Source of the DNA: an uncultured Methanoregulaceae archaeon
GTDB taxonomy: Archaea > Halobacteriota > Methanomicrobia > Methanomicrobiales > Methanospirillaceae
Length of the DNA: 64,000 nt
Assembly: GCA_963701095.1 (NCBI GenBank)
Contig: OY969564.1
Span: 416,001 to 480,000, forward strand
Direction of reading: 5' to 3'
Part shown: positions 16,959 through 52,112 of the stretch, piece after piece
Numbering within the stretch: the stretch's first letter is position 1
Layout: every line of letters starts with the position of its first letter
Translations under genes and position numbers: made by a program
Notes under the pieces: model-generated
Database searches by the model: none
What the model saw: the letters and a program-made list of their open reading frames with translations, nothing else
Told to the model about the DNA's origin: nothing

Positions 16959-16993
16959 AATATAATTCTTGGCTGTTTTTGCAAAATCTGTAC
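16959..16993 (-). promoter_or_regulatory. Shared upstream element plus TATA-like box (site A)
   Basis: Minus strand GTACAGATTTTGCAA-N12-ATTATATT. Confidence 0.6.
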
Positions 16994-17199
16994 CAAAAAG
17001 ACGGGTAATCTGATGATTCAGAGTAAAAACAATAAAATTACAAAACCGGGAGATTTTTTGGACGCGATCTACAGTATATTCTTTTCAATCAAGTGGAATC
17101 GAGCACCCTGTTCACGATGAATGTTGCAAAATTTGCAAATACAGGAATTGTAAAATTCCGAAATGATAATGTATAGCGGGTTGTTAATAGAGGTCGATC

Positions 17200-19542
17200 G
17201 TGAGAATTATGATGAAAACGAATTGTGTAATGTGTGCGGGAATCATTACCCTGCTCCTCATTCTGATGGTACCTATGGTATCTGCCGACAGCACTGTCCA
17301 GCCGGGCTATATCACGGTCGGACTGGCACCTGTTGCCAACTTTAACGCGGTGTACACGGGCACCACGGCTCCTGCTGTGGTTACATTTCAGGATCAATCA
17401 ACTGGTAGTACCCCATTAACATATTATTGGAATTTTGGCGATGGCGCAACATCAACCGATCAAAATCCACAACACACGTATATTCAGAGTGGATTATTTA
17501 CCGTCAATCTCACAGTAACAAATGCATATGGGACCAGTACCGAGACAAAAGTAAATTATATCGGGATTGGACTGGCTCCGAATGCTGACTTTACCGGTAT
17601 TCCGACAACAGGGAATGCACCGTTGACGGTAGTGTTCACGGATCGTTCATCGGGATCTCCAACGTCATGGAATTGGGATTTCGGGGATGGTCAAACATCG
17701 ACCCAACAGAACCCGGTGCACATCTTCTTTGCGCAGGGAGATTATTCCGTGACCCTGACTGTAACCAACAGTAAGGGTACATCCACCATCACAAAACAAT
17801 ACTTAATTCATGTATTGCCTGCTCTCAAATCAATATTTACCGCCAATCCAAAATCCGGAGTAGCGCCGCTTGTTGTAGGATTTACCGATATATCTACGGG
17901 GAATCCACAAACATGGACGTGGAATTTTGGCGATGGCACTACTGACACAACACCGAATCCAGTCCATACCTTCACTAATAAAGGGGTCTATGCCGTTAGC
18001 CTTACAGTAACCAATGGGATACAGACGGATACTTCGACACAGGCGATCGTTGTTGGTGGTGTTCCCGCAGTAGATTTCGTAGCGGATAATACAACTATTG
18101 TTGCAGGCACTCCTGTACACTTTACGGACTTAACAACAAATTCGCCGACTTCCTGGTATTGGGATTTCGGCGACGGCCATTCATCGACCTTGCAGAACCC
18201 CACTGAAATCTATATGGCAAATGGGGTTTACAACGTCACCCTGACGGCCACGAATAATAATGGACAGAACACGCTGGAAAAAGTTGATTATATAGACGTT
18301 GGGGTCCCACCCACTGCAGACTTTACTACGGCAATTCCGAGCTTCCAGGTAGGCAGTGAAACTCAGTATGTCCAGTTTACGGATACTTCCTACGGTAACC
18401 CGGTTACATGGTCATGGAATTTTGGCGACGGAACGACATACAGTGGCCAGGAACCTCCCCTTCATCTCTATAACCATGTCGGATCATATACGGTTTCACT
18501 GACCGTGACGAATGCCTTTGGACAGAACACAAAGACAGAATCCAACCTGATTAACGTCAGAGCAGGACCATTAGTTAACTTCACGGCGGATAGGACAACT
18601 GTGAGTGTGAACCAGTACGTATCATTCACCGATCTTTCTGCAGGTAATCCTACCAGCTGGTCATGGAATTTCGGCGACGGAGCCACAAGCTCCGAACAGA
18701 ACCCCAGCCATGCATATAACCAGGTTGGAGTTTATTCAGTGATGCTGACAGCATCTGACGGGTACACCCAGAACTCCCTGACAAAGTTAAATTACATCAC
18801 CGTTACAAATCTCCCGAGTGCTGACTTTGTAGGAACACCTACCAGGGGCATTTCGCCTTTCACCGTAGCGTTCACCGATAAGTCCGTAGGCAACCCGACT
18901 GGATGGTCTTGGGATTTCGGTGACGGGACAACGTCGAACGAGCAAAATCCCTCACATGTATACACTACATCCGGCAATCAGATAACCAACAATTATACCG
19001 TGTCCCTAACGGTAACAAATTCAAACGGTGCTAATACAGAAACGAAAGTGGATTATATCCATGTGACCCAGACGCCCATTGCTGATTTCACTGTAAGCTC
19101 AAGGCAGGGTAAAGCACCATTTGTCGTGACATTCACTGACCTTAGCCTAGGGAGCCCAACCGCATGGCTTTGGAATTTCGGTGACGGGACAACGTCGACA
19201 GACCAGAATCCGACGCATACCTATCCATTCGAAGGATCCTATGATGTCCAGCTGACCGCTACGAACCAATATGGGTCTGACACTGTCTTCAAGACCGGAA
19301 CGACATCTACACGGAACAACGGAGTACCTACCGAAGAACCCATTCCGGTACCCTATGTGATAGTTACTCCGCAAGAGGTGATACCGACAATTGCCGCAAC
19401 ACCTCTACCAACCATGCCGCCGGCAACACTGCAGCCAACCGTTATTCCGACAACATCACAGGCACCAGTATCAACTCTCGTTCCAGTGGCTGCAGTTGTG
19501 ATCGGTATGCTTGCGGTTGTTGCAAAGACAAAACTGAAATAA
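17200..19542 (+). CDS. Cell-surface protein with 8 PKD domains
   Basis: Signal peptide; eight W[ND]FGDG repeats; Pro/Thr linker; C-terminal TM plus basic tail. Confidence 0.95.
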   Translation: MRIMMKTNCVMCAGIITLLLILMVPMVSADSTVQPGYITVGLAPVANFNAVYTGTTAPAVVTFQDQSTGSTPLTYYWNFGDGATSTDQNPQHTYIQSGLFTVNLTVTNAYGTSTETKVNYIGIGLAPNADFTGIPTTGNAPLTVVFTDRSSGSPTSWNWDFGDGQTSTQQNPVHIFFAQGDYSVTLTVTNSKGTSTITKQYLIHVLPALKSIFTANPKSGVAPLVVGFTDISTGNPQTWTWNFGDGTTDTTPNPVHTFTNKGVYAVSLTVTNGIQTDTSTQAIVVGGVPAVDFVADNTTIVAGTPVHFTDLTTNSPTSWYWDFGDGHSSTLQNPTEIYMANGVYNVTLTATNNNGQNTLEKVDYIDVGVPPTADFTTAIPSFQVGSETQYVQFTDTSYGNPVTWSWNFGDGTTYSGQEPPLHLYNHVGSYTVSLTVTNAFGQNTKTESNLINVRAGPLVNFTADRTTVSVNQYVSFTDLSAGNPTSWSWNFGDGATSSEQNPSHAYNQVGVYSVMLTASDGYTQNSLTKLNYITVTNLPSADFVGTPTRGISPFTVAFTDKSVGNPTGWSWDFGDGTTSNEQNPSHVYTTSGNQITNNYTVSLTVTNSNGANTETKVDYIHVTQTPIADFTVSSRQGKAPFVVTFTDLSLGSPTAWLWNFGDGTTSTDQNPTHTYPFEGSYDVQLTATNQYGSDTVFKTGTTSTRNNGVPTEEPIPVPYVIVTPQEVIPTIAATPLPTMPPATLQPTVIPTTSQAPVSTLVPVAAVVIGMLAVVAKTKLK

Positions 19543-19709
19543 TTTTTTTTGAAAATTTCTATTTCTTGTTTTAAAAAGAATAAAATTATCATAAGAGATT
19601 CTGTGAGAATTAATCTTACATTTAAGCCATTTCATTCCACGGTCTATGGGAATTCTTCATCTCAATGAACCTAAAAAATCCTGAAATAAATTAAAATATT
19701 TTATCACCC

Positions 19710-19743
19710 TTCAAATTTTGTAACATCGGAATTAATTATTATA
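19710..19743 (+). promoter_or_regulatory. Shared upstream element plus TATA-like box (site B)
   Basis: TTCAAATTTTGTAA-N12-TTATTATA. Confidence 0.55.
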
Positions 19744-19885
19744 GTATTTCCGCCATATAACGACCTGCTCTGGTGTGGTAATTTTACCAGATGATGTTTT
19801 ATTACAATAAAAAATGTCATCAGGAAACAAAGAACAGGGCTTCAAAAAATGAGAAACGAATCTCAGCGAAAAGGGGGAATTTTAC

Positions 19886-20524
19886 ATGGATGATATAAAT
19901 TCAGGGAATGATGAAAAGGGCCGGGAACTGGCCCGGGAAACGGGAAAAAGGGAGGAACAGGATGCGCAACGCCAGCGTGAAATGGCGACAGAAAAAGGAC
20001 GGAAACAGGGACTAGATGAGGAGCGCAACCGGGAAAAACAAGATAAACAAAAGGCCGGTTGGGGAACAGGGATGAAGATTGGTGTATTCATTATAGTTCT
20101 TGCCATTATAGTAATAATAGCAGCCTTTCTCACGGTATCGGTTCAAGTAACTAATGTCTCTCCCGGTGATGTGTTACCCTATACTTCGAGTTACGGTACT
20201 TCATTTCCTGAAGGTCAGACAATCCAGATCGGAAACACACAGATCAGTGCAATCTCTTATGGGAATTCAGTCACCACGGATGTGAATGGAAATCAGCAGC
20301 AACTTCAGGTAGGTCAGACCCAGGACGTATCAGAACAGCATGCAAGGATTACTACACTTGGTGTGATCACCCTTATGAATACCAACTTCCAGATTGACCT
20401 TACCTACAAAGGTGAACGAGATAACCGGGCATATTTTGATATAGCCATTAATACCGGAAGTCAGGTACCGTCTGAGCTTATCAGACTGTTGCTCCCATCT
20501 GAAATAGATGCAACACCCATATGA
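19886..20524 (+). CDS. Hypothetical single-pass membrane protein with a charged N-terminus
   Basis: ORF track; one TM helix and a beta-rich external part. Confidence 0.75.
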   Translation: MDDINSGNDEKGRELARETGKREEQDAQRQREMATEKGRKQGLDEERNREKQDKQKAGWGTGMKIGVFIIVLAIIVIIAAFLTVSVQVTNVSPGDVLPYTSSYGTSFPEGQTIQIGNTQISAISYGNSVTTDVNGNQQQLQVGQTQDVSEQHARITTLGVITLMNTNFQIDLTYKGERDNRAYFDIAINTGSQVPSELIRLLLPSEIDATPI

Positions 20525-21404: not shown

Positions 21405-22839
21405 TCAATCACCCTGATCTTCGGGAATGGCCCATGAAGGTTTTTTGAATTTCATAAAGACCAGCGGCGGTACTGCAAGGAGGAATGTCCCGAGGAGGTA
21501 CTGCACCGACATAGATCGGGATGTTTGTGAAAAATGACGGAGGAATAAGTCCTACAATAAATGCAAATACGACACCGAACCCTCCAATACCCCCAACAAT
21601 CCAGATCCCCGTCATACCGCCGGGGATCTTAAACGGGCGTGGCTGATCCGGTTTACTGTACCGGAGCTTGATGAGGGCCGCAAAAATCAGCACGTACATG
21701 ATGCAGAGCAGTTCTGTCGTCATTGCCGACATGATCCAGTATGCCTGGTTGACAGATGGCAAGATAATATACAGGAGAGAGATTGCAGAACCGATGAGAG
21801 CTTGGGTGACAAGTATTGCAACTGGCGACCCGTACTTGTTATGACGGTTGAAAACCTGTGGCATATTCCCGTCTAAGGCCACAACTCCGAGGCCTTTTGC
21901 AGGACCGATGAGCCAGGCTGCGAGGAGCACCACTCCGCCAAGCGTCAGGAGGATTGCCATAGGTGCCACAAGCCACGTGAGATTAACTGCTCCAAGGAAG
22001 TACTGGATGGCCTGCATGGTACCGGATGCGAGACCGAGCTGCGTTGTGGGGATGACAAATGCTATCGCGAGTGTCCCGAAAACCGAACAAAGAAAAATAA
22101 TAACTGCCGATAATGCCATCGCTTTTGGATAATCTTTCTGCGGATTCCGGGTCTCAAGCGCATGGAACCCGGCCATCTCCATTCCCGCAAACATAAGAAT
22201 GATCGTAGAGAAAAATGGCACCGTTGTTAAGTTTATTTCCGGGAGCATTGCCCCCAAAGAGAATACGGGAAGTACTATTGCGGCGCCGGTAATGACCCAC
22301 CAGAGGCCGAATAGAATGATAAGAACTGTCGGGAAAATACTCCCTGCCACAACGCCGAAATTGGAAAATTTTGAGGTTACATCAGGCCCGAAATATGCGA
22401 TTGCAGTCGTACCCCAGAATACGATCATCATCACACTGAGCATATAGACCGGATTATTTGCAAGATCCGGGGTAAGAGCAAAGGCAAGGGTCGAGGCAAT
22501 GAAGGCAAGTACAGTGGGAAACCAGACAAGGTTGTTGGACCAATCGCAGAAGATCGCTATAAAACCTCCTTTTTCCCCAAAGGCCTGTTTCACCCATGCA
22601 TAGACACCACCGCCTTCGGGCCATCCGGTGGCGAGTTCTGCACCGGCAAGCGATATAGGGACGAGAAATAATATTGTTCCTATGACGTACCACCCTACAC
22701 TCGACCATCCGAACTCTGCCATGGAGGGAAAATTCCTGATACTCAACACCGCGGCGACGTTAATCATCGCGAGGGCAAAGACGCCCAGTATTTTCATATT
22801 AACAGGTTTTTTTGTTTTTGCAACGTTATCTTCGGTCAT
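21405..22839 (-). CDS. APC-family amino acid/amine antiporter (GadC-like); apparent +1 frameshift at about 21497
   Basis: About 12 TM helices, ELAT.WP..GGVY.WV and F.GME motifs. Removing one base restores ...GAVLLGTFLLAVPPLVFMKFKKPSWAIPEDQGD*. Confidence 0.88.
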
Positions 22840-25142
22840 GATTTCTCCTTGATACAGAAAATCCTATACTCTCCATTCACGTATTCGACACCGTGAGTGT
22901 CATGGGTAAAACCGGGGAACCGTGCATCGAAATTCTGGAGTGCGAGCAGGTACTGGAGTACCGGTTCATCAGCTCTGCCCGTCCGTTCTCCCGGAAGGAG
23001 TAAAGGAATACCCGGGGGATAGGGGACAATACCGGTTGCGACGATCTTGTCTCCCATCTTTGCTACTGGCACCTGTTCAACTTCACCTTTCACGAGGTGT
23101 TTGTATGCTTCGGCAAATGTGATGGCCGGTTGTGGAAGAAGACCGTATGCTTTTTCAAGCAAAATTCCCTGCCCGTTTTCCCGCATGAAGCCATGCATAT
23201 CAGCTACGAGATCCTGGAGGGTCATTTTCCCGTACCGGTCCGGGTATTGTGTTGTAAGGTCGGGGAATATCTCGTCAAGCGGAGAATTCTCGTCATAATG
23301 GCGCTTGAACTCAAAGAGTTCAGATACGAGAGTCCCCCACTTTCCTTTGGTAACTCCCATCGAGAAAAGAAACAGGATGATATAATCCCCGGATTTCTCA
23401 TTGATGATACCACGGGTATCAAGGAATTTTACAACAATTGCTGCCGGGATCCCCCATGCCTCGAGAGATCCGTCGGGCGCCACCCCAGGAGTAACGACAG
23501 TAACTTTGATAGGATCAAGCATGCAGTACCCGTCTTCAAGCCCCGAAAAACCATGCCATGCATCGTTCGGGTGCAGGACCCAGCAGGAAGGGTCGTCGCG
23601 TAGCAGATCATGATGAGCATCGGCAAAAGGAACTGTCTTTCCTGTTTTGGGATCGGTAACGGTATCTGGCTGCCACATGTCAAACCACCAGTCTTTTGAC
23701 CCCTTTTCTTTTTCGAGTTCACGGGAAATCCTTGCCATTATTACGCGGAACCGGATTGCCTCGTCAATGCATTCCGTTGTCAGAATTAAACCCGAGGGGC
23801 CATCCATCATCTTTGAGGAGACGTCGAGTGAAGCGATAATGGGGTAAAAGGGTGAGGTCGAAGTGTGCATCATAAATGCTTCGTTAAACCGTTCGTGCTC
23901 CACGGGGGATCTTCCGTTCCGCACATGGACCATAGATGCCTGAGAGAGTGCCGCGAGGAGTTTGTGTGTTGACTGTGTTGCAAATACCGTGGGACTATTG
24001 GAGTTTTTTATTTCCTTTCGCATGGCGAAACGCTCCCGGTACAGGGGATTAAACCGGGCATATGCAAACCAGGCCTCATCATAATGAATACGATCAACAA
24101 TCCTACCAAGTAACTCTTCAACCCGGGTGGCTCGATAACAAAGACCATCATACGTCGAATTCGTTACAACTGCTAGTGTGGGATTTGGCTTATTTACCGC
24201 CCGGGTCAACGGGCATGCTTTAATTTTTGCTGTTACTGTATCTGGCAGCATCTCGTTCGGGTGAATAGGACCGATGATCCCAAACCTATTCCGTGTCGGA
24301 ATCAAGTATACCGGGATTGAATGCGTCATAGTGACCGCATGCTCTACCGATTTGTGACAGTTTCGATCTATGAGAACAATATCACCATCGGTAACACAAC
24401 CCATGAAGACTACCTTATTTGCTGTGGAGGTTCCGTTGGTCACGAAGTACGTCCTGTCTGCCCCGAACACTTTTGCAGCATACTTCTCTGCTTCACCAAT
24501 AGGTCCTGAGTGATCGAGGAGAGAGCCCAATTCGCTTACCGAAATGGAGAGATCAGACCTTAGCAGATGTTCTCCGAAAAAATTGTAAAATGCCCGCCCG
24601 GCTGCCGATTTGCGGAATGCGGTTCCACCGGCATGGCCTGGAGTATGCCATGAATATTCAAAATCCTCTGAGAAGGTAGCGAGAGAGCCAAAAAATGGCG
24701 GGAGAAGGTGGGCACGGTAACGCCTGGAGGCTGCCCGTATCCGTCCAGCAATAAACTCCGGTGAATCTTCCATTACCCAGACATATTCACTGACCTCACG
24801 GATCATGTCTAAAGTGAGGGTCGTGGGAGATTCTTTCGTGGGTTCCCCCATCAGGAAGATAGGGATCTCCTCGTTCCTCTTCCGGATCGCATTTATGAGT
24901 GCCACAGTCGCATTATGGCGATGTGGCGTATCTCCGCCAAGGTTCCAGTTGATGAATACGCTATCAGATTCAGGAAGGCTGGCAAGAGCACCACTTGCAT
25001 TATCGACTAATCCAACATCGATGATATGAATGCCGAAATCTGTTAATCCATCCATGATCCGCCGGATCGCGTTTCCTGCTGGGGTATCCGTCTTATGGAT
25101 ATCATCAATGAGGGAAACGGTCAGGATTTCTTCGGCGTTCAT
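22836..25142 (-). CDS. PLP-dependent Orn/Lys/Arg decarboxylase with N-terminal wing domain (AdiA/CadA type)
   Basis: WHTPGH.GG, VTNGTST.NK, DRNCHKS, HYDEAW, QSTHKLL (PLP lysine), LDPIKVT and YPPGIP motifs. Confidence 0.95.
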   Translation of the reverse strand: MNAEEILTVSLIDDIHKTDTPAGNAIRRIMDGLTDFGIHIIDVGLVDNASGALASLPESDSVFINWNLGGDTPHRHNATVALINAIRKRNEEIPIFLMGEPTKESPTTLTLDMIREVSEYVWVMEDSPEFIAGRIRAASRRYRAHLLPPFFGSLATFSEDFEYSWHTPGHAGGTAFRKSAAGRAFYNFFGEHLLRSDLSISVSELGSLLDHSGPIGEAEKYAAKVFGADRTYFVTNGTSTANKVVFMGCVTDGDIVLIDRNCHKSVEHAVTMTHSIPVYLIPTRNRFGIIGPIHPNEMLPDTVTAKIKACPLTRAVNKPNPTLAVVTNSTYDGLCYRATRVEELLGRIVDRIHYDEAWFAYARFNPLYRERFAMRKEIKNSNSPTVFATQSTHKLLAALSQASMVHVRNGRSPVEHERFNEAFMMHTSTSPFYPIIASLDVSSKMMDGPSGLILTTECIDEAIRFRVIMARISRELEKEKGSKDWWFDMWQPDTVTDPKTGKTVPFADAHHDLLRDDPSCWVLHPNDAWHGFSGLEDGYCMLDPIKVTVVTPGVAPDGSLEAWGIPAAIVVKFLDTRGIINEKSGDYIILFLFSMGVTKGKWGTLVSELFEFKRHYDENSPLDEIFPDLTTQYPDRYGKMTLQDLVADMHGFMRENGQGILLEKAYGLLPQPAITFAEAYKHLVKGEVEQVPVAKMGDKIVATGIVPYPPGIPLLLPGERTGRADEPVLQYLLALQNFDARFPGFTHDTHGVEYVNGEYRIFCIKEKS

Positions 25143-25446: not shown

Positions 25447-25481
25447 TATTTATACCGTTCCGGTTATTACAAAATCTGCAA
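25447..25481 (-). promoter_or_regulatory. Shared upstream element plus TATA box (site C)
   Basis: Minus strand TTGCAGATTTTGTAA-N12-TATAAATA. Confidence 0.65.
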
Positions 25482-25565
25482 TAATTCAAGAAAAAAAGCC
25501 AGGTATTCTGAACCCGAAGGCAACGTTTCTCAAACAAAAATGAATTTCCACTTAGAATACTCGTA

Positions 25566-25946
25566 TTAATCGGAGAGGTATTTTTCGGCGTATTTCTGGA
25601 GATAAGTCGTAATATAAGGCGTCACTATCGGAATAATAACCGGGATCATTTCACGGATAAGATCCGTATTATTCGTATCCTTCTGCCGGGTGACGCGAGA
25701 TCTTTGTTGTGCTTCCTTTGTCGGAGCACGTGATGTCATCAGTTGGAATATCCCGTAAACGGCTATTCCGGCAACCACTGCTGTGGCAGCTGTGGCAATT
25801 GGGTGATCGCGTACCGTTTTTCCCACAGTTTTGCAAACACTAAATGGATTCTGGATTACGGATTGTTTCAGCTCACTGTAAGATTGAGCAATCAACGATT
25901 CAGTGACAAGGAGATCTTCTTTTGTAATACGCCTATTGCTTTCCAT
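25566..25946 (-). CDS. Hypothetical membrane-anchored protein (third gene of the ElaB/YqjD-like triad)
   Basis: VRDHPIATAATAVVAGIAVY motif; overlaps the upstream gene. Confidence 0.7.
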   Translation of the reverse strand: MESNRRITKEDLLVTESLIAQSYSELKQSVIQNPFSVCKTVGKTVRDHPIATAATAVVAGIAVYGIFQLMTSRAPTKEAQQRSRVTRQKDTNNTDLIREMIPVIIPIVTPYITTYLQKYAEKYLSD

Positions 25947-26307
25947 TTTTTATCATATCCTTCGCAAGGGGAGTGTTCAGAACGATTTTGTTCGATAGGA
26001 CCAGATGTGCCGCTACAGTTCCTACTCCACACATGATAGCTCCCGTGATGAGGAGGGCCGCCCAAAGAGGAACTAATGTAGCGATAAAAAGGATAATACC
26101 TACAACCAAGATTATGATTCCAGCTACCAGTGAGGTGAGAATGACCGATAAATACATTAACTGTTTAAAAAGGAAGTTCACAGGTTCAAACACATAGTCC
26201 TGCAGAAACAAATCTGTTTTTTGCCGCAGGTAGAGATCTATATATTTGATTATCCTGACGAACTGTAATTCTATCGTATCTCCTTCGGTTTCGGCAGCTG
26301 AACCCAT
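25933..26307 (-). CDS. Two-TM membrane protein, YqjE/holin-X-like
   Basis: Long hydrophobic hairpin with VPLWAALLITG; lies downstream of the ElaB-like gene. Confidence 0.7.
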   Translation of the reverse strand: MGSAAETEGDTIELQFVRIIKYIDLYLRQKTDLFLQDYVFEPVNFLFKQLMYLSVILTSLVAGIIILVVGIILFIATLVPLWAALLITGAIMCGVGTVAAHLVLSNKIVLNTPLAKDMIKNGKQ

Positions 26308-26318: not shown

Positions 26319-26627
26319 TTAATCTCGTGATTTGAAGATGATCATGCCAAGGAGAATACCTATTCCTGCTGCAACTAACACCGCAGGTATTGGATGATCA
26401 CATATAACATGTTCTACAGGTTCCACGTGTTTGTGATATGACGTTTCCATATTATGATAGCCGTGGCCAACATCTGCCTTAAACTGGTTTACCCGGTCCT
26501 CGACATCCTGCAGGATGGCCCTTACATCCTCTCCTCTCGCCGATACATCAGCTATCCGCAGCTTGCGGGCAGCCTCTTCCAGAGCTTCAGCCGTCTGGTT
26601 TTTTAATTCTACAGTATCATGTGCCAT
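26319..26627 (-). CDS. ElaB/YqjD/DUF883-like tail-anchored protein
   Basis: Helical charged N-terminus and C-terminal I.DHP..AVLVAAGIGILLG...K.R tail anchor. Confidence 0.8.
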   Translation of the reverse strand: MAHDTVELKNQTAEALEEAARKLRIADVSARGEDVRAILQDVEDRVNQFKADVGHGYHNMETSYHKHVEPVEHVICDHPIPAVLVAAGIGILLGMIIFKSRD

Positions 26628-26762: not shown

Positions 26763-26796
26763 AGTATAAGGATTACCTGACGTTGCAAAATCTGAA
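26763..26796 (-). promoter_or_regulatory. Shared upstream element plus TATA-like box (site D)
   Basis: Minus strand TTCAGATTTTGCAA-N12-CTTATACT. Confidence 0.65.
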
Positions 26797-26968
26797 TCGA
26801 TCAGAATTTCCGTTCAGGTAAGAAATATTATAAATTTATTCATTCCGCAGATCTGTTGAAAAAATATCAGTTCTGCATTTATGTATTATATGATAATTTT
26901 GAATTTTCATTCAAGGATCCGACATGCTACTAGTTGAAACATTTGAAAGGTATCGAAAAAAAATTGGA

Positions 26969-28099: not shown

Positions 28100-28355
28100 G
28101 CAGGAGACTGATGTTAAAAGCATAATAATATATCCCGATTTTCTTTTTTTTGCAAATTGTCAAATCCATACTGACACATTTTAGTTTTATTTTTGGAAGA
28201 TGTCCTGGGAATCGGGCTATATGAACCATATTCATCCAATTACGATTCTATCGATTTTGGGATCTGCACATATCCTATATGAAATGTGTTATGGGGACAC
28301 TTTACCCGGATGAAACGCAATCAGAGAAATAATCAAAAATTGTATGTTTCAAAAA

Positions 28356-28389
28356 TTGCAAACTTGCAAAATATTTATTAAATTTATAC
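28356..28389 (+). promoter_or_regulatory. Shared upstream element plus TATA-like box (site E) before the kinase/REC-PadR operon
   Basis: TTGCAAACTTGCAA-N12-ATTTATAC. Confidence 0.55.
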
Positions 28390-28547: not shown

Positions 28548-30893
28548 ATGGTCGAAGGTAATTGGTCTAATGAAAAAATCCGATGGATGGAAAGTTTTCC
28601 TGATATGAACCCGAATCCAATTGTTGAAATGGATGCAAACGGGGCAATCACTTTTTTCAATTCAGCAACTCAAAAAACTCTGAATAATCTGGGATTTCCT
28701 GAAAATCCCGCAATATTTATTCCAGATGATAAAGTGGAAATATTACGCCTCCTTAAGGATAGTGCTGAATCACAGGTTTCCAGAGAAATTATCCTTAAAG
28801 ATGCGTGTTTTTCGGAAAATATTTTATTTTTCCGCGAGTTCCAGACGGTCAGAATTTATGTAGTAAACATTACCAAACAAAGAAAGGCAGAATGGGAATT
28901 AGTCAGAAAAAACGATGAAATCACTGTACTTAATGAAAGACTCACGAGACTCCATAATGAACTTGGTCTGATCTTAAAATACAACAAAAAGTGTGAAGAG
29001 GTACTGCACCACCGGGAGGAAACCTTCCGCCAGGCTCACGAGTTTTTAGAGACCGTAACAAAAGGGACCGGTGTGAATATCGCTATACAAGACGTGAATT
29101 TACGTTACTTGTTTTTTAATAACGAATACAAAAAAGAAATTAAGCGACTTACGGGAAAGAATCTCACTTTAGGCACCAGTATGGTAGAATTGTTCAGGGA
29201 AAAGCCGGAAGAGCAAAAGGAAGCCATGATCGAGTGGAGTAAGGTACTCCACGGTGAGAATATAAATAAAATACAAGAATATGGAGATCCTGGGAAGTCC
29301 CACAAAGTCTATCATGTAATTCATATCCCTATCAGGGATGCCAAAGAAAATATTATTGGCGCGGGTGAACTAGCTTACGATATAACTGAACAGGTTCAGA
29401 TTCAGGATAAACTTCGTGAAACGAAAGAATATTTTGATAACCTTATAACGTATGCTAACGCCCCTATTATTGTTTGGAACCCTGAACTCCGCGTTACTCT
29501 TTTCAACCATGCTTTTGAGCATCTAACCGGTCGAAAAGCAAAGGAAGTCATCGGAAAACCATTTTCCATTCTTTTCCCTGAGAACTATCTCGATACGGTG
29601 ACCGCTCTTATCCAAAAGACTCTGGAAGGAGAACGTTGGGAAAGTGTCGAAATCCCCGTTCTCCATAAGAATGGTAAGGTCAGGACAGTACTTTGGAACT
29701 CTGCCTCTATTTTTGGTAATGATGGAAAAACAATTGTTTCAACTATTGCACAAGGGCAGGATATCACTGATCGGAAAAAGATAGAATATGAGTATAAATT
29801 GCGAGCAATCGGATATGCAAAAATAAACGAGACGCTCCAGGAAGAGATCCTTCAACGGACGATATCAGATAAAACGCTAAAAAAAACTCTTTCTCTTCTC
29901 AATGCATCACTTGAATCAACGGCTGACGGAATCATCGTCGTCGATCTGAAGGGAAATATTACTAGTTATAACCAGAATTTTGTGAACATGTGGGACATCC
30001 CCCCAAGGTTATTGGAATCGAGGGAATGGAAGGGGGTAGTTAATCAAATAGTGACCCAACTTAAGAATCCTGATGAGTTTCAATCTAGCATCAAAGATCT
30101 TCAATCTTTCTCGGGACGTGAAAGCTTTGATATGATCGAATTTAAAGATGGAAAAATTTTTGAATGCTATTCAAAACCCCAGAAAATAGAAGATACGCTA
30201 GTCGGCAGAGTATGGAGCTTCCGGGACGTTACCGATCGCAGACAAGCAGAGGAAAAACTTTTATCTTCCATTCAGGAAAAGGAAATCCTGCTTCGAGAGA
30301 TTCAGCACCGCGTAAAGAATAATCTCGAGCTGATATCCAGTGTGCTTGATATGACACGGATGCGTACTCGTGATGAATTAACGAATGACCTACTTACCGA
30401 TATAATGCTTAAAATCCAGACCATTGCACAGTTTCATTCCCGCCTGTATGAAAGCGAGCAGCTGGGGAAATTCAATATAACCAGTCAATTCAGGGATCAG
30501 GTTAATTTACTATCGAATATTTATTTCAAACCGGGGCAGGAAATTAATTGTGAAATTAATTCTCCGGACATATTTCTCACACTCGACCAAGCGTTACCTT
30601 GTGCACTTATAGTCAATGAAATACTCTCAAATGCCTATAAACATGCCTTTACTGGGAGAAAACAAGGAGTGATTGAAATTTCCGGATCTCAGGAGGATGG
30701 GCAAAACCACCTTACTTTCCGGGATAATGGTATTGGAATACCGGATACGGTGAATTTAGATCGTTCTACCAGCCTTGGACTTAAGCTGATCAGGACACTC
30801 GTGCAACACCAGCTGAGAGGCTCTTTAAAGATAAACATCCAAGGCGGAACTGAAATTTCGGTAGAATTCCCTTTCATTCAAGGCGGGACATGA
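28548..30893 (+). CDS. Multi-PAS histidine kinase, HisKA_2 type
   Basis: H-box [28 protein letters not shown] and SLGLKLI motifs; four PAS-like domains; no TM. Confidence 0.92.
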
Positions 30894-30896
30894 GTC

Positions 30897-32252
30897 ATGT
30901 CAAAGATACTTGTTGTAGATGATGAAGCGCTTATTGCAATGCGCCTCGAAGAACGTCTAAGCAGTCTGGGATATACCGTTGTAGGCATGGCAGCCTCCGG
31001 AGAGGATGCAATTGATAAGGCACGAAGTACTCGACCAGATCTTGTTTTGATGGATATCGTTATGCCGGGAAGGATGAATGGGATCGATTCAGCAAAAATT
31101 ATATCAGATGAACTGGATATTCCGGTTGTTTTTATCACCGCATATGCCGACGACGAAATAATCAAAAAAGCAAAAAGTGTCCGACCGTATGGATATATTG
31201 TAAAACCCATCAATGAGCTCGAAATTAAGGCCGCCATTGAAGTGGCGCTGTTCCGGAAATCGGAAGAACAGGATCTGCAGAAATTACAAAAAATGGGTCG
31301 GGAAAACATTTCAACGGAGATGGTAACCTCCCAGAGTGCAGATGAAAGTCTTACTTACCTTGATATAACTGAAGAGAAAACCGTTCTATTAACAGATATT
31401 TTTACAGAAATCGGTTTATTTCTCTATACAGACCCTGATGCAAAAGAATCCATATTTAAATTTGTATTGGAAGAGGGAATAAAAAAGCGAGGACGCACAT
31501 TATTTTCTTACTCCAAGTCAACGATTCCGAAATATTTCCAAAATGAGATCCGGAAAAAGGAACTCTATACGTTCCGAATAAGAAGAAAAGAAGTTTATAA
31601 CCTTTTACCTATCCTTGAAAAATGTACCCAATCCCTATCGGACGATCCATCTCCAACAGCATCATTACAGATCCTTCTCGATTTTTCTGAACCTGAAGAG
31701 TTCGAAGATATTCTTTCTATCAAGGATTTGCTTCTTTCAAAAAAGAAGAATATGATCCCCGTATCAGGAATCATTGCCGTGAATATCGGGAATATGGATC
31801 ATCAACTGATAGCATCTTTGGCTGCAGGTATTCCCAAGATCATTGTTTCTACTGGTAAAGAGACCACTTTTTCATTCGCTCATAATTCATTTCCCGCAAA
31901 ATCCGTTTCCGTTGTTCCTCAGTCAACTATTGATTGCGTTATAAAAAAATCACTGGAGCCAGTAGTTCTTTCACTACTGGAAAAACCGATGTCCGGGTAT
32001 GATATCGTTCATGAGATTCAAAGGAGATATAAAGTCCTCATTCCGCAGGCAAGAGTTTACACCATCCTTCATGATCTTTTGAAGGACGGTTATCTTGAAG
32101 TTGAAGTTTCGGGAAAATCTAAATTGTTTTGTCTTACTGAAAAAGGAAAAAAACACGTCAGCCAGAGACTGAACGAGTTCAGGTTAGTTTTCTGGCATAT
32201 TTTAGGAGATGGGAATGAAATAAACGCTGGGATTGAAAATCAAAATCAATGA
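30897..32252 (+). CDS. Response regulator: REC - unknown domain - PadR-type winged helix
   Basis: Intact receiver (VVDDE...MDI.MP...ITAY...KP) and C-terminal VLSLLEKPMSGYDIVHEIQRRYKVLIPQARVYTILHDL...LTEKGK. Confidence 0.88.
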   Translation: MSKILVVDDEALIAMRLEERLSSLGYTVVGMAASGEDAIDKARSTRPDLVLMDIVMPGRMNGIDSAKIISDELDIPVVFITAYADDEIIKKAKSVRPYGYIVKPINELEIKAAIEVALFRKSEEQDLQKLQKMGRENISTEMVTSQSADESLTYLDITEEKTVLLTDIFTEIGLFLYTDPDAKESIFKFVLEEGIKKRGRTLFSYSKSTIPKYFQNEIRKKELYTFRIRRKEVYNLLPILEKCTQSLSDDPSPTASLQILLDFSEPEEFEDILSIKDLLLSKKKNMIPVSGIIAVNIGNMDHQLIASLAAGIPKIIVSTGKETTFSFAHNSFPAKSVSVVPQSTIDCVIKKSLEPVVLSLLEKPMSGYDIVHEIQRRYKVLIPQARVYTILHDLLKDGYLEVEVSGKSKLFCLTEKGKKHVSQRLNEFRLVFWHILGDGNEINAGIENQNQ

Positions 32253-32362
32253 AAAGGGCATTCATAAAAACCAGAATAAACGATAAATGGAAGTTTAGAA
32301 TAATGCTAGCATCAAATCTCTTTTTCTCTTTTTTCTCTTGAAATGTCTCATTCTTAAAAACG

Positions 32363-32397
32363 TAGCAATATTTGCAATACCTCGTCAGGTATATCTT
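32363..32397 (+). promoter_or_regulatory. Shared upstream element plus TATA-like box (site F)
   Basis: TAGCAATATTTGCAA-N12-TATATCTT. Confidence 0.5.
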
Positions 32398-32789
32398 CTA
32401 TCATAAAGATGTAGTCTCCGGGTATAGTGTTGCCCACGGGAGGTAGATTACCATCTTTATGAGAAGAATGCCGAATTCAACTCAGTTGAGGCTGTTAATC
32501 CTCATCTGAATAACGCATGCGGACAGACGATAGTGGAATCATAGGTAAAGGCCGCTTCGTTCGTTGCTGTCCATAAGAACCTCTAAATTACATCATAAAA
32601 AGAGCCTTAAAAAATATGGCTCAAGAAAAATAGTGGCGTTGTGGCATTTAGAAGTCGAATTATAAGCCCGATAACTGATTGGGGTTATTTATACCCCTTT
32701 TTCGAGCTTCAAACTGATGAAAACCAATTAAAAAATGGATGTTACCTAAAAAATATGTAGTCTATAAAAAGTTAACCGGGCGCAGGAAT

Positions 32790-33086
32790 ATGAAAACAGA
32801 AAATTCTAAAAAAATCAAACCGGAAAAAACTACCGAACCAGAAACAACATTCATAGATGATGGAAAATTCCTCCGCATACGTACAGAACTGCCAGGCATT
32901 GCCGAAGAAAAAATCAAAATCGCCCTTGAAAACCGTTCAACTTCAATAACTATTTTAGCTATTAACTCCGTGATACAATACAAAAAAGTAATTAATATCC
33001 CCGGTGAAGTAAGGTTTAGTAAAAAGCGTTTCGCAGAAGGTGTCTTGGAATTAACCCTGGAAAAAATTGATTCTAATATTCCCTGA
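32790..33086 (+). CDS. Hsp20/alpha-crystallin-like small protein
   Basis: ELPGI.EEKIKI and F..GVLELTLEK motifs. Confidence 0.75.
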   Translation: MKTENSKKIKPEKTTEPETTFIDDGKFLRIRTELPGIAEEKIKIALENRSTSITILAINSVIQYKKVINIPGEVRFSKKRFAEGVLELTLEKIDSNIP

Positions 33087-37125: not shown

Positions 37126-37270
37126 TCCGTCTCTAAATTGTCATCCTCGTATTACCGACTGTGAATATGAATGTCTGAATGTGATACAAATTCGTGAGTC
37201 TTGTGCCAATGCCATATTGAATCTCCAGCCCAGTATGAGAATAACCTCTTAATAGAAGATTTCACGAATA

Positions 37271-37315
37271 TCAGAAATTGCAACGTTTTTTGCAACAAAG
37301 GCACAGGATTATCTA
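37271..37315 (+). promoter_or_regulatory. Shared upstream element plus TATA-like box (site G)
   Basis: TCAGAAATTGCAACGTTTTTTGCAA-N12-ATTATCTA. Confidence 0.5.
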
Positions 37316-38271: not shown

Positions 38272-38312
38272 CAAAGGTCTGCTCATGGTTCAAAACCAGT
38301 TTCGAAAATTAA

Positions 38313-38347
38313 TTGCAATAAATGCAATAATCGGGATATTATATCAC
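38313..38347 (+). promoter_or_regulatory. Shared upstream element plus TATA-like box (site H)
   Basis: TTGCAATAAATGCAA-N12-TATATCAC. Confidence 0.55.
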
Positions 38348-38424: not shown

Positions 38425-39411
38425 ATGACTATTGCACTTCATATCGATAACCTGACCAAGCGATTCAACGAACTGGTTGCTGTGGACAAAATATCACTTG
38501 ATATCGATCACGGAGAGATTTTTGGGCTGCTTGGTCCCAATGGCGCCGGGAAAACAACAACAATATCCATGCTGTCAACTATGCTCAAACCTACGTCCGG
38601 TTCAGCGACGGTTAATGGCATCGATATCGAACGTAACGAGGATGGAGTGAGAAAATCCATAGGGATCGTCTTCCAGGACCAGAGTCTCGATGAAGAACTG
38701 ACTGCCTGGGAAAATATGGATTTTCATGGACGTCTTTACCGTGTCCCCGCAGATCTACGTAAGCAACGGATTACAGAGCTACTCAACCTTGTCGAGTTGG
38801 AAAACCGGAAAGACGACATCGTAAAAACATTTTCCGGAGGAATGAGGCGTCGTCTGGAAATTGCCCGTGGACTTCTCCACCACCCTGCGGTCCTCTTCCT
38901 TGATGAACCTACGTTGGGCCTTGACCCTCAGACCCGAAATCATCTCTGGCAATACATTGCCACCTTGGCCAAAGAGAAGGGAATTACCATCATCCTGACG
39001 ACGCATTACATGGAAGAAGCCGACCAGTTATGCAACCGGGTTGCTATTATCGATCATGGTAAGATCATTGCTCTTGATGCTCCAAAAAACCTCAAAGATG
39101 GAATTGGCGGGGATGTAGTGACGATCAGATCACCAGACCCGGCTGCTGTGGTTGCAGCCCTGAGCGAACCTTGGATCACCCGCGTGGAACAGCATAATGA
39201 TGAAGTAGTTATCAACCTGAAAAATGCCGAACAGCACATTAGTGCTATCGTAACTCTGCTCAACTCAAAACAAGTCTCTATCGAATCCCTTGCCATCCAT
39301 AAACCAACTCTAGAAGACGTGTTTCTCTTTTTTACTGGAAAAACGATCCGTGATGAAGAGGCTGACCATAAAACCAACATGCGGATGTACCAGCGGATGG
39401 TGAGGCATTAA
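38425..39411 (+). CDS. ABC exporter ATP-binding protein, DrrA-like
   Basis: GPNGAGKTT, FSGGMRRRLEIA, LDEPT.GLDP and THYMEEA motifs. Confidence 0.95.
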   Translation: MTIALHIDNLTKRFNELVAVDKISLDIDHGEIFGLLGPNGAGKTTTISMLSTMLKPTSGSATVNGIDIERNEDGVRKSIGIVFQDQSLDEELTAWENMDFHGRLYRVPADLRKQRITELLNLVELENRKDDIVKTFSGGMRRRLEIARGLLHHPAVLFLDEPTLGLDPQTRNHLWQYIATLAKEKGITIILTTHYMEEADQLCNRVAIIDHGKIIALDAPKNLKDGIGGDVVTIRSPDPAAVVAALSEPWITRVEQHNDEVVINLKNAEQHISAIVTLLNSKQVSIESLAIHKPTLEDVFLFFTGKTIRDEEADHKTNMRMYQRMVRH

Positions 39412-39413
39412 TC

Positions 39414-40163
39414 ATGGACATTGTATATGCCATCTGGCTCAGGAATATGAAACGCTATGTGCGATCCAAAAGTCGGATCATTGGCAGTATCAGTATGCCG
39501 CTCTTCTTCCTGCTCTTTTTGGGCTTTGGATTGAATTCCGTGGTGACATTGCCAGGAATCGGCGGAAACTACATCGTATTCCTGATACCCGGCATCGTAG
39601 CAATGAGTGTACTGTTCACCTCAGTTTTTTCCGGAATCCAAATTATATGGGATAAGCAATTCGGATTTTTGAAAGAAACCCTGGTTGCACCGGTCTCGCG
39701 ACTGGAGATCATGTTAGGCCAGACGCTGGGTGGAGCAACAACAGCAGTACTTCAGGGATTTATGATCCTCATCCTTTCATTATTTATCGGGCTTCACGTA
39801 TCAAATCCAGCTGGTTTTCTCGTGGCTCTTGGATTCATGATCCTTATCGGTATATCATTCACGGCGTTTGGCATTGCGATTGCATCACGTATGGATGACA
39901 TGACAGGTTTCCAGCTTATTATGAATTTTGTTGTTTTCCCCATATTCGGACTGTCTGGTGCTCTTTTTCCAATCAGCTCATTGCCGTCATGGATGGCTCC
40001 GATTACGCTGGTGGATCCGTTGACCTATGGCGTTGAAGGGATCCGTTACGGTCTCACCGGTTCTTCACAGGTTAATCCGCTGATCTGTGTGGCGGTTATC
40101 GGGGGTTTCACGATACTTATGACTATACTCGGGGCATTCCTGTTCAGAAAAATCAGGTTCTGA
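39414..40163 (+). CDS. ABC-2 type permease, DrrB-like
   Basis: Six TM helices; WDKQFGFLKE.LVAP, SGALFP and PLTYGV motifs. Confidence 0.93.
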   Translation: MDIVYAIWLRNMKRYVRSKSRIIGSISMPLFFLLFLGFGLNSVVTLPGIGGNYIVFLIPGIVAMSVLFTSVFSGIQIIWDKQFGFLKETLVAPVSRLEIMLGQTLGGATTAVLQGFMILILSLFIGLHVSNPAGFLVALGFMILIGISFTAFGIAIASRMDDMTGFQLIMNFVVFPIFGLSGALFPISSLPSWMAPITLVDPLTYGVEGIRYGLTGSSQVNPLICVAVIGGFTILMTILGAFLFRKIRF

Positions 40164-42327: not shown

Positions 42328-42361
42328 TGTATATATCAAACTCGGTATTGCAAAATCTGAA
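42328..42361 (-). promoter_or_regulatory. Shared upstream element plus TATA box (site I)
   Basis: Minus strand TTCAGATTTTGCAA-N12-TATATACA, preceded by a further TTCAGATT half-site. Confidence 0.65.
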
Positions 42362-42596
42362 ACAATCTGAAAATTTTCAATATCAATTTTTGAGAAATAG
42401 TTCTATTGCTTAAAAGGGCAAAAAAAACTACCGTCTTAATCAATCTATATTAAAATATAAAGATCCCCAAACGAAGCATCGTTTATTTTTGATTCACATC
42501 CAGGCAGATCGATACGGAATTCCCGGTTACATAGAAAAATGTTTTAAATGAAAGTTTATGATATTTATTGATACGGTAACGGAGCGGTTTTTTACG

Positions 42597-42851
42597 TTAC
42601 TTTTTCTTCAGTCCTGATTGGGCTTCATGCATCGCTATTTTCGTATCAGCCTCATTTTTTGCGATCCGAATCTTTGCATCATCAGATGCTTTGTGGACAC
42701 TGGCCTTTGCCTGATCTGAGATTTTCTCAGTTTTGGTTTTTCCCTTAAGAGCATTGTGTGCGACTACCGATGCATTGTCATACGCAGAATGCGCAGATAC
42801 GCGAGCATCATCAACTGCTTTGTGAGCTTTAACTTTTAAATCGTCCGTCAT
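42597..42851 (-). CDS. LEA/hydrophilin-like 11-mer repeat protein (84 aa)
   Basis: VDDARVSAHSA YDNASVVAHNA ... SDQAKASVHKA SDDAKIRIAKN EADTKIAMHEA; paralog of 16649..16873. Confidence 0.78.
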   Translation of the reverse strand: MTDDLKVKAHKAVDDARVSAHSAYDNASVVAHNALKGKTKTEKISDQAKASVHKASDDAKIRIAKNEADTKIAMHEAQSGLKKK

Positions 42852-42921: not shown

Positions 42922-42956
42922 TTGATTAATTGCACTTTTATTTGCAAAATTTGGAA
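42922..42956 (-). promoter_or_regulatory. Shared upstream element plus weak TATA-like box (site J)
   Basis: Minus strand TTCCAAATTTTGCAA-N12-TTAATCAA. Confidence 0.5.
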
Positions 42957-43156
42957 AATATTTTATTAAAAATTTTTTGGTTCTCAACCGTCGAAATCCT
43001 GTAAATCTGATGTAGGCACTTCTTATTGTGTTTTGGGGCTCGTCCTCTGCCATAAGAGATCTTTATCAGCCCAGGTATACAAACTTGAAATGTTTATACC
43101 GGTAATTTGGACTGAAAAACAAGCATTAATACCTTAACACAACAAAATTTTGGAAG

Positions 43157-50037: not shown

Positions 50038-50195
50038 GATTTTCCTACGGAGGTATAGGAAAGGGGGTCATATCAATTTGGCGATGGGCAGATAACTGTT
50101 TAGTACCTGTGTATAGCACGACTGAAAAGAAGATGAAATTGTTATAAAAGAGATTGAGAAAACTGCCACGGCTAAAGATCCTTTGACGGTTTTTT

Positions 50196-50504: not shown

Positions 50505-50691
50505 AAAATTGACCCCTTTTGTCGGACATAGGATGAAAAATGATATATAATTACGTTTACTCTTCAGATTTTGAGACAAAAAATGAAACGCCCGGGATAC
50601 CAAATGGCTGAATTTTAATCGCACGGCAATGCTGCATTGCATTGCTTCATAGAGTACCTACCGTTAATTGCCATTGTCAAGGAGGAGATTT

Positions 50692-50862
50692 ATGGTATCA
50701 TTCAAATGTTCAGAAATAGGACTTGATTGTCAATACGAAATTATGAGTGAGAGGGAGAATGATTTGCGAAGAAAGATTCTGGATCATATCCATGATTCAC
50801 ATCATGAAGGGGCTTGTCCTCCCGAGGTTTTAATGAAGATACAGACCGTTATTCATCAATGA
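50692..50862 (+). CDS. Small metal-binding protein, DUF1059-like
   Basis: FKC..IG.DC.....(E)...H....H pattern; GGAGG RBS. Confidence 0.75.
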   Translation: MVSFKCSEIGLDCQYEIMSERENDLRRKILDHIHDSHHEGACPPEVLMKIQTVIHQ

Positions 50863-50966
50863 ATTACGATTTCCTTTTTTTATATTTTCCTCATAAATGT
50901 CAGTATATCTTTTCCGGATAAAAAAGTCCTCACGTAACAAATTGTAAAAAATAATACTCTGCTAAA

Positions 50967-51911
50967 TTATGCAGCTGAAGGAATTCTATGAATATAATTT
51001 TCAAATTTTTGCTGAGACCGGATATTTTCACATATCTGCAGATTTTTCAAGGCCTGTTCGGCAGTAATGGGGAACTGACGTTCATCGGATACACAACTGA
51101 CAAATGTATTTAATTCATCTTTTAGGGATTCTGACTTATTGATCAGTACTTTCTCTATAACGTTATCCTGGACATACCGGCAATTTTCCATTGAATACTG
51201 ATCTGGTTTCCGGTAGATGGAAATTTCCTGTGTCATGAGATCTGCTTCAATGGTATAATTCTCCTCTTCGACATAAATCATTCTTATCTTCTTGGAAGAT
51301 TTCCTGCTTGCCGAAAGGTACACCGGTGTTTCATCGAAATTAAAAAGGGCTGTGCATACGTCCTGGTTTCCAGCACTATATAAAGTTGGTTGACCCGTAA
51401 AAAGGAGATTGAAAATAATATCAATATCATGGATCATAAGGTCTTCGACGACCGAACCGTCTACAACTCTTGCCGATGCCGGATTATGCCGTTTAATCTC
51501 AACATACAGAGGTTTTTTTAAGATCTTGGCAATTTCTTTAACGACCGGATTGAATCGTTCTATATGGCCTACTCCAACAATAGCATTTTCTGGTATAATA
51601 TTGACCAGTTTTTGCGCTTCATCAACAGTCTGGCAGATCGGTTTTTCGATAAGGATTGGTATGTTATGGTCGATTAAATTTTTCGCAATATCAAAATGAT
51701 ATTTGGTAGGAACGCACAGGCTCACTGCATCAACACAGGATTCAAGTTCTGCAAGAGTATCGCAGGCAAATGCATTATTCATTTTAGCCACGTTTTCTGT
51801 TGCAGCCCGGTTTGAATCAAACAATGATACAGAATCTACCGATTTCATTTCTGAATAGATTCTGGCATGATTCATCCCCATGGCTCCTACACCGATTACA
51901 CCAATATGCAA
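50967..51911 (-). CDS. Gfo/Idh/MocA-family NAD-dependent oxidoreductase (sugar-nucleotide dehydrogenase-like)
   Basis: GVIGVGAMG, EKP, GHIERFNP and DLMIHDID motifs. Confidence 0.9.
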   Translation of the reverse strand: MHIGVIGVGAMGMNHARIYSEMKSVDSVSLFDSNRAATENVAKMNNAFACDTLAELESCVDAVSLCVPTKYHFDIAKNLIDHNIPILIEKPICQTVDEAQKLVNIIPENAIVGVGHIERFNPVVKEIAKILKKPLYVEIKRHNPASARVVDGSVVEDLMIHDIDIIFNLLFTGQPTLYSAGNQDVCTALFNFDETPVYLSASRKSSKKIRMIYVEEENYTIEADLMTQEISIYRKPDQYSMENCRYVQDNVIEKVLINKSESLKDELNTFVSCVSDERQFPITAEQALKNLQICENIRSQQKFENYIHRIPSAA

Positions 51912-52080
51912 TCTTTCACGCTCCTTTGAAAATACTTCATATAATCAGAGCCGGATTGTTCTCCGCCAGATATGTCATTCATCGTCTCCCCCTTCTTTTG
52001 ATAAACATTATTTTAAGATATGCCTTGCTCCGGTGCATGGCAAATTATTATATATGGAATTAAAGTCTGCCAAGCAAAAG

Positions 52081-52112
52081 AAAAGTCTGCAACATATAAA
52101 ATTTTAAATATT
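52081..52112 (+). promoter_or_regulatory. Degenerate shared element plus TATA-like box (site K) before the wHTH-PAS regulator
   Basis: AAAAGTCTGCAA-N12-TAAATATT; AAAGTCTGC is also repeated at 52062. Confidence 0.4.

Follow-up and report, generated by a model that had tools for sequence, protein, structure and literature searches.

A probable GvpE-type upstream activating sequence and its candidate PadR-family response regulator in a Methanoregulaceae archaeon

Promoter elements and genes of the window

The window is a 64,000-nucleotide stretch of DNA from an uncultured Methanoregulaceae archaeon (positions 416001-480000 of contig C1 in genome G000, 2.63 Mb). Directly upstream of the transcription factor B (TFB) recognition element (BRE) and TATA box, ten of its promoters carry a common 20-nt element, and one of the ten leads an operon for a histidine kinase and a response regulator. 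The element, in these ten sites and in relatives, consists of two 8-nt blocks with a 4-nt gap (8-4-8) and has a period of 12. Its core is CA-N5-TG(C/T)AA, with an invariant proximal half TG(C/T)AA. The element end is followed by 2 nt and a 7-nt BRE, and the proximal TG(C/T)AA begins 17 nt ahead of TATA. A weak BRE was considered as well: among the sites of relatives, position -3 is A in 73% and position -6 a purine in 82%, percentages for which the comparison background offers no usable BRE profile. The first-pass annotation of this DNA had described TTGCAA-like half-sites about 9 nt apart, 12 nt upstream of TATA. The two-part nature of the element is retained, and its form is better given as 8-nt blocks 4 nt apart.

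Ten of the eleven sites first proposed hold. Eight were placed correctly or one base off, at 16979 (-), 19709 (+), 25467 (-), 26783 (-), 32363 (+), 38313 (+), 42348 (-) and 42942 (-). Two are re-registered: the site given as 28356 lies at 28347 (+), a register kept in the orthologues, and 37290 marks just one half, the proximal one, of a site with three blocks and a 15-mer start at 37281 (+). The site at 52087 is unsupported, having neither a matching distal half nor an in-register TATA. A sequence reported as shared by two sites is indeed an identical 14-mer at 26783 and 42348.

The composite of element, BRE and TATA at 16959-16995 (-) precedes a gene for a small hydrophilic 11-mer-repeat protein of 74 residues (16649-16873, -) and, 5 nt behind that gene, one for a small DUF1328 (UPF0391) membrane protein (16489-16644, -; PF07043 43.5 bits, cut-off 27). 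The orthologous promoter in three relatives (G008, G010, G123) carries it as well. At 19707-19743 (+) the composite precedes a 212-residue membrane protein (19886-20524) and is kept in four relatives (G008, G021, G058, G077). The site at 25447-25483 (-) leads an Orn/Lys/Arg decarboxylase gene (22836-25142) and a GadC-like antiporter gene (21409-22839), and that at 26763-26799 (-) leads a triad made of a weakly matching DUF883-like gene (26319-26627), a PF07332 gene (25933-26307) and a third gene (25566-25946). The kinase-regulator operon follows the composite at 28345-28381 (+), which is kept upstream of orthologous operons. The site at 32361-32397 (+) precedes a long conserved leader and an Hsp20-like gene (32790-33086), and the three-block site at 37267-37315 (+) precedes the gene for methanogenesis marker 8 (DUF2099). 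The remaining sites lead an ABC-2 exporter pair (38311-38347, +; genes 38425-40163), a predicted lipoprotein of 167 residues (42328-42364, -) and a second 11-mer-repeat gene (42922-42958, -; gene 42597-42851).

Two of the gene labels given earlier need qualification. The late embryogenesis abundant (LEA)-like label comes from periodicity alone: the self-match peak has period 11 in all three copies of the repeat protein, and no LEA domain or other Pfam family matched. The ElaB/YqjD label corresponds to a match of the DUF883-like protein to PF19029 at 17.1 bits (E 0.0044), below the cut-off of 27.

Spacing between the element and TATA

Open reading frames (ORFs) of G000 were called by a custom script, which gave 2,775. 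The two-block element model was trained solely on nine window sites and then applied to held-out DNA. In the window, the noted pattern with up to two mismatches gave 20 matches, compared with a shuffle mean of 4.70 and maximum of 13. This test is circular because the pattern was derived from the window. A plain regular expression of the element, 12 nt and TATA gave 7 matches in the intergenic DNA of the window, against a mean of 0.08 and a maximum of 1 in 300 dinucleotide shuffles, and is circular too. The held-out DNA points the same way. At 340-416 kb of the genome, 5 of 26 element matches had TATA at +12, where 0.52 was expected from other offsets; in the rest of G000 the count was 23 of 258 (7.7 expected), mostly of a second element variant described below; and at loci of relatives it was 18 of 106 (3.4 expected). 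The enrichment of the spacing in the held-out DNA is significant; a test of the spacing against controls was a check proposed by the first-pass annotation.

The composite pattern was also scanned in 108 genus genomes with the reversed pattern as control, giving 144 occurrences against 24. A pattern with a 4-nt spacer gave 48 matches and is a rough wrong-spacing control, with a slightly stricter TATA term. Among 519 element matches at 38 loci of relatives, TATA stood at +12 in 77, compared with 9-55 at other offsets; the element model of the relatives omits 18 of these 77 sites, namely clade-b kinase sites, weak sites and sites without a clear downstream ORF. At loci L248-L327, which overlap the earlier set, the offsets of 604 matches peak at +12 (56) and +24 (50), suggesting three-block arrays of period 12. 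The 12-nt spacing is also seen outside the window and at orthologous Methanoregula and Methanospirillum promoters, and it is kept although the spacer sequence diverges. Conservation at orthologous promoters had been another proposed check, and both the element and its distance show it.

The kinase and response regulator

The operon behind the element at 28347 encodes a cytoplasmic histidine kinase (28548-30893, +) with Pfam PAS, HisKA_2 and HATPase_c domains and an intact H-box. It is followed by the candidate activator (30897-32252, +), a protein of 451 residues that combines a receiver (REC), a KaiC/RecA-like (MEDS-like) domain and a PadR winged helix. The receiver residues D8, D9, D53 and K103 are invariant over 38 sequences, and T81 is conserved in at least 90%. 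The winged helix matches PF03551 at 38 bits (cut-off 27). The full-length model is poor (pLDDT 63) and matched just receiver domains; the output region folded alone reaches pLDDT 78. In this model the middle domain is predicted to have a RecA/KaiC/FlaH-like fold, with matches to UvsX (Z 14.5, rmsd 3.2, 155 aligned), FlaH (Z 13.9, 3.8, 170) and KaiC (Z 12.1, 3.1, 162). Its MEDS likeness comes from Atlas structure rows (TM about 0.49); Pfam MEDS does not match the regulator, and the middle domain has no Walker A motif. This inactive KaiC-like domain may serve as a docking or ligand module.

The operon is itself led by the element, both in the window and in many of its Methanoregula orthologues, as well as in the complete genome of a cultured strain, Methanospirillum lacunae Ki8-1 (L284), suggesting putative positive autoregulation. 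The first-pass annotation had listed the operon only among the targets, and the role of its regulator as the likely reader had gone unnoticed. Named homologues of the regulator come from Methanoregula. The family is narrow: of 401 genomes sampled across the phylum, 20 have it, and 15 of these belong to this taxonomic family. No description of the element or the regulator was found in a literature search whose coverage left most subscription papers outside.

Two variations of the operon were seen. At four loci of relatives (L028, L034, L048, L054) the element-led operon opens with full-length KaiC and apparent KaiB-like genes, followed by kinase and regulator. G000 also has a second kinase/regulator operon (C1:1442311-1446102, L044) with a TCTCA-type element upstream; its regulator gene is broken into two ORFs that overlap, either as a pseudogene or through an error of assembly.

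Similarity to GvpE and its upstream activating sequence

In form and distance, the element matches the upstream activating sequence (UAS) of the haloarchaeal gas-vesicle activator GvpE, a likeness that the first-pass annotation did not remark on. Mutational mapping resolved the GvpE-UAS into a pair of 8-nt blocks with 4 nt between them, beside the BRE; its spacing is rigid, the proximal block is essential, the distal block can be deleted, and it is described as specific for gvp clusters (Bauer et al., PMC2241852). Both have the 8-4-8 arrangement directly upstream of BRE, the 17-nt distance from TG to TATA and a proximal half that is the conserved one. In contrast to the GvpE-UAS, the window element leads about 17 non-gvp promoters, and gvpA was not found in G000.

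The geometry was compared in four annotated haloarchaeal plasmid records. On the gvpA side the distance from the proximal TG to TATA is again 17 nt, with TATA calls made by eye and the c-vac one weak. On the gvpD side, two of the four (Haloplanus and H. borinquense) carry on their own strand GTTTCA-N5-TGTAA and, after a further 2+7 nt, TATA, which is the form of sites 28347 and 42348; the distal block of p-vac is looser. Compared with the published half-site YGAAAYGA, TG(C/T)AA of the window differs at position 3 and equals the gvpD-side half, and the second variant has TGAAAC.

Both proteins carry a PadR domain. GvpE is described as a dimerising protein with a likeness to leucine-zipper proteins; it binds TFB and the TATA-binding protein (TBP) in vitro, and ATP-binding GvpD destabilises it (PMC4390858). 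All four proteins at the GvpE position (two annotated GvpE and two syntenic homologues) pass PF03551 with 30-34 bits (cut-off 27), and hhalign of the regulator with GvpE gives 81% (E 1.2e-5, 93 columns). With H. salinarum p-GvpE as query, exactly two proteins of G000 match at E<=1, the window regulator and a receiver-less paralog (E about 0.01). GvpE is a stand-alone protein of about 190 residues in a gvpDE operon, whereas the regulator has 451 residues in three domains and stands behind a kinase. GvpD is a separate ATP-binding repressor in haloarchaea; here the Walker-less KaiC-like domain is fused into the regulator, and hhalign finds no similarity between the regulator and GvpD (0.3%).

A further regulator clade is found with gas-vesicle genes of Methanoregulaceae, in the order kinase-regulator-CDC48-gvpA (L137, L138, L139, L144, L146, L042). 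It is present in eight of the nine genus genomes with gvpA and is a candidate methanogen gas-vesicle regulator. Ten of 13 methanogen gvpA promoters were parsed, with three left unparsed, and in the ten the blocks have a period of 12 and keep the register of haloarchaeal PA.

Co-occurrence of element and regulator

The number of composite elements follows the identity of the regulator in the genus genomes. The mean per genome is 2.07 where a regulator of at least 63% identity is present (45 genomes), 1.24 at 52-62% (21 genomes), 0 where just distant clades of 39-46% occur (7 genomes) and 0.38 where no regulator was found (34 genomes). This co-occurrence is suggestive only, because the genomes are kin and not independent and the sites are physically linked to the regulator gene.

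A second element variant is paired with the receiver-less paralog, a KaiC-like and PadR protein at C1:529576-530448 (L076:3576-4448, -) adjoining REC-PAS genes. In the 108 genomes the strict pattern of this variant, AGTTTCA-N5-TGAAAC, occurs 13 times in G000, seven times in G116, once each in G078 and G096, and in none of the other 104. The 13 sites on C1 mostly have the same TATA spacing and include 56957, 57728, 98120, 531724, 716359, 787900, 908222, 2070460 and 2497607. The variant precedes an MreA-family gene, surface proteins with PKD/Kelch and DUF3821 domains, and receiver proteins, and it stands directly after three tyrosine integrase genes. Orthologues of the paralog occur only in G000, G116, G087 and G078, and next to the paralog gene each of these four genomes has the second variant, with TATA at +12. 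The G087 site escaped the strict pattern, having C in the spacer, and the lone G096 site has no TATA. The pairing, seen in four of four paralog genomes, serves as an internal control: another paralog goes with another variant of the element.

The first-pass annotation had proposed one activator or an alternative TFB. The activator and its regulon stand, by inference from the rigid spacing, the conservation and the tracking of one regulator. An alternative TFB is rejected as the reader: phmmer and tblastn give a single TFB gene, and BRE is positioned downstream of the element. That TFB gene is at C1:1851401, and G000 has three TBP paralogs (C1:643238, 769429 and 2547598). The 769,429 copy has a GT4 gene nearby; in relatives, homologues of this GT4 gene bear the element.

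Members and extent of the predicted regulon

G000 also has element sites beyond the window. They precede two DUF1328 genes together with a small gene (genome position 345,788), the third 11-mer-repeat gene (372,806), an aRF1 paralog (378,363) and DedA (378,820). Another lies at 943,305. At 374,281 (+) a strong element with TATA faces the 3' end of a TMEM175 channel gene in antisense direction; no sense gene was called for it. A conserved target at 2,027,723, before a PEBP orthologue, is 1.6 Mb distant. In relatives, sites with TATA at +12 precede orthologues of the window 11-mer-repeat, membrane, DUF883-like, Hsp20-like and kinase genes, and also a KaiC operon, Fe/Mn superoxide dismutase (SOD), PEBP, a GT4 enzyme, ice-binding-like proteins and a T2SSE ATPase. 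The Hsp20-like gene is the target most often recovered. The DUF883-like gene itself occurs in 31 of 45 close-regulator genomes and 11 of 62 others, and its loci from genomes with a mid-identity regulator or none carry the element in 0 of 8. Membership of the regulon is fluid.

DUF1328 and elaB/yqjD are general-stress genes of bacteria. The general-stress role first proposed is plausible by annotation of the targets, including the held-out DUF1328, DedA, 11-mer-repeat, Fe/Mn SOD, PEBP and ice-binding-like genes; several others (methanogenesis marker 8, ABC exporter, T2SSE ATPase) are not stress genes by annotation.

Several neighbouring features were recorded. The leader at 32398-32789, before the Hsp20-like gene, is partly conserved in 14 loci and has a Shine-Dalgarno-like stretch and a small hairpin of weak consensus. 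It has no conserved ORF and is possibly a small RNA; no Rfam family was found in window 14000-56000. A perfect palindrome of the element at 17124-17138 has no strand and just a weak TATA-like hexamer on the plus strand, and its role is uncertain. Copies of a Mutator/IS256-type transposase, one apparently truncated, lie in the element-rich region (window 14814-16007, genome 382220 and 403921). A tandem near-duplicate pair of secreted-protein genes without a Pfam family is found at window 57047-58581.

Discussion

We consider it probable that the element is a GvpE-type UAS that defines a stress regulon, with a dimer of the window response regulator as its most likely reader. Its parts are not equally firm. 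The element is very probably an activator site, we hold with good confidence that the regulator at 30897-32252 is its reader, and for a general-stress role the targets make a reasonable though weaker case. In the proposed scheme, the PAS/HisKA_2 kinase would phosphorylate the REC aspartate, and the regulator would then bind the element as a PadR dimer. Standing beside the BRE, the bound regulator would recruit or stabilise TFB/TBP, as is thought for GvpE. Its own operon and the physically clustered protective genes would be switched on. The protective set would comprise the 11-mer-repeat proteins, DUF1328, the DUF883-like triad, Hsp20-like, DedA and decarboxylase/antiporter genes, to which relatives would add SOD, PEBP and ice-binding-like genes. 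We infer these steps and the stress trigger from the observed element, its spacing and conservation, the domains, the co-occurrence and the UAS likeness.

A number of observations weigh against this assignment. With a TATA model learnt independently from all G000 promoters, the counts outside the window show little excess at three thresholds (15 vs 12.1, 9 vs 5.8, 1 vs 2.7); the seed of this model required a TT start, absent from several regulon boxes. The plain regular expression at 340-416 kb gives 3 matches at +12 and also 3 at +10. As many as 15 of the 17 element sites in G000 fall inside 113 kb, and 39 of 119 element matches in relatives lie within 60 kb of a regulator. Co-inheritance on one island could alone produce the co-occurrence. 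Eleven of 34 regulator-less genomes have an element match (G103, 74% complete, has three), while 5 of 45 close-regulator genomes have none, and at loci of mostly distant clades the element stands upstream of the operon in only 4 of 24. Targets are not evenly kept: among 29 homologous loci scored for each gene, the element was present at one decarboxylase locus, a close 81% copy, and at eight DUF883-like loci. Some of the loci scored may be operon-internal, and the stretch scored for G106 may stop short of a site about 600 nt upstream that the composite-pattern scan found. Kinship of the proteins is also in question. A tree joins the regulator family with GvpE at 80/90, unstarred, on a long branch and with just 10 generic PadRs (G024 was omitted from one tree). 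Two generic PadRs outscore all four GvpE in the family HMM, GvpE is not among the tblastn matches listed for the winged helix, and the proximal block of methanogen gvpA promoters departs from the consensus. The tree, HMM scores and tblastn show no special sequence closeness to GvpE beyond the PadR level. Since this kinship is weak, we describe the system as working like GvpE and its UAS and do not class the protein as GvpE.

Other explanations were compared with a GvpE-like stress regulon. The same element and reader could serve a single condition, such as cold, acid, or stationary phase and dormancy, or mere self-regulation of a gene island. The mixture of targets (ice-binding-like and PKD surface proteins, T2SSE ATPase, marker 8, ABC exporter), the clustering of sites around the regulator and the Mutator-type transposases in the region would fit this; we consider it unlikely, however, as the targets cover several kinds of protection (small heat-shock-like, SOD, decarboxylase/antiporter, DUF1328, 11-mer-repeat, DedA) and a conserved one, before the PEBP orthologue, lies 1.6 Mb away. 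It is quite improbable that another dimeric factor, one MreA/TrmB paralog or an HTH-PAS protein, binds the element, with the REC-KaiC-PadR operon being just a target. HTH-PAS proteins are encoded in the window, the second variant stands upstream of the MreA-family gene at genome 57,101, and physical linkage weakens the argument from regulator co-occurrence. However, MreA as a family is rejected as the reader: it is present in 106 of 108 genomes and therefore does not track the element. Nor would another factor account for the pairing of paralog and variant, or for an element that resembles the UAS of a PadR-family activator.

Repression is common among PadR proteins, and the same regulator might block TFB from just upstream of BRE until phosphorylation relieves it. 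However, every site stands completely upstream of BRE/TATA, and the distance is one and rigid. A repressor would not need this, and GvpE activates from the same geometry (PMC2241852), so that we give repression very little weight. Least credible of all is an alternative general factor (TFB or TBP) reading an extended promoter, or chance in AT-rich DNA. The three TBP paralogs and the weak held-out signal of the independent TATA model are in its favour, but one TFB was found, the two-fold element precedes BRE, the shuffle, reversed-pattern and wrong-spacing controls are far lower, and orthologous promoters hold the 12-nt distance despite spacer divergence.

A GvpE-like activator of this kind can be set beside other known systems. 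Ptr2, TFB-RF1, EarA and Tar belong to other protein families, read other motifs and are not known to have two-component input. The mode of action proposed here is similar to theirs, as they activate by recruiting TBP or TFB to the promoter (PMC11705074). RosR of Halobacterium salinarum is a MarR/PadR winged-helix protein of the oxidative-stress response that binds the palindrome TGT-N10-ACA (PMC7145548). It is an archaeal winged helix and among the structural matches of the output region; unlike the regulator it is single-domain, has no receiver or kinase, and reads another motif. Alphaproteobacteria run their general stress response through an HWE/HisKA_2 kinase, PhyR, NepR and an ECF sigma factor. 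A HisKA_2 kinase is common to both, the regulator receiver scores best against the PhyR model, and DUF1328 and the DUF883-like triad resemble PhyR/RpoS-type targets. The regulator has no sigma-mimic domain (PRK09191 at 99.5 bits, cut-off 240, matches the receiver portion only), and the predicted output here is direct DNA binding, making this a functional analogy only. In a census of archaeal signalling, DNA-binding response regulators are rare and signalling proceeds mostly by protein-protein contacts (PMC5847659). Its FilR1, LtrR and Bat likewise join a receiver to a helix-turn-helix in an archaeon, with other domain order and output. The main text of the census makes no mention of PadR, and its supplementary table may already record the winged helix; MetOD5, an uncharacterised 300-residue Methanoregula entry, may be the output region of the regulator.

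We see about an even chance that GvpE is an offshoot of a wider archaeal activator family with an optional receiver, an inactive KaiC-like domain and PadR, in which each paralog reads its own variant of a 20-nt UAS at a fixed TATA distance. Its clades would run a phosphorylation-triggered stress response in Methanoregulaceae, gas vesicles in methanogens and a receiver-less cell-surface programme. If true, paralogs would divide promoters among programmes, much like bacterial alternative sigma factors. This would recast GvpE, described as leucine-zipper-like (PMC4390858), as a PadR winged-helix protein with a UAS beyond gas-vesicle genes, and it names a candidate regulator of methanogen gas vesicles. 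In contrast to the general picture of the census (PMC5847659), a widespread methanogen lineage conserves a kinase together with a DNA-binding regulator, as well as the site and the regulon predicted for it. If confirmed, the system would provide methanogens with a general-stress master regulator with testable targets, of a kind not found described in the literature searched.

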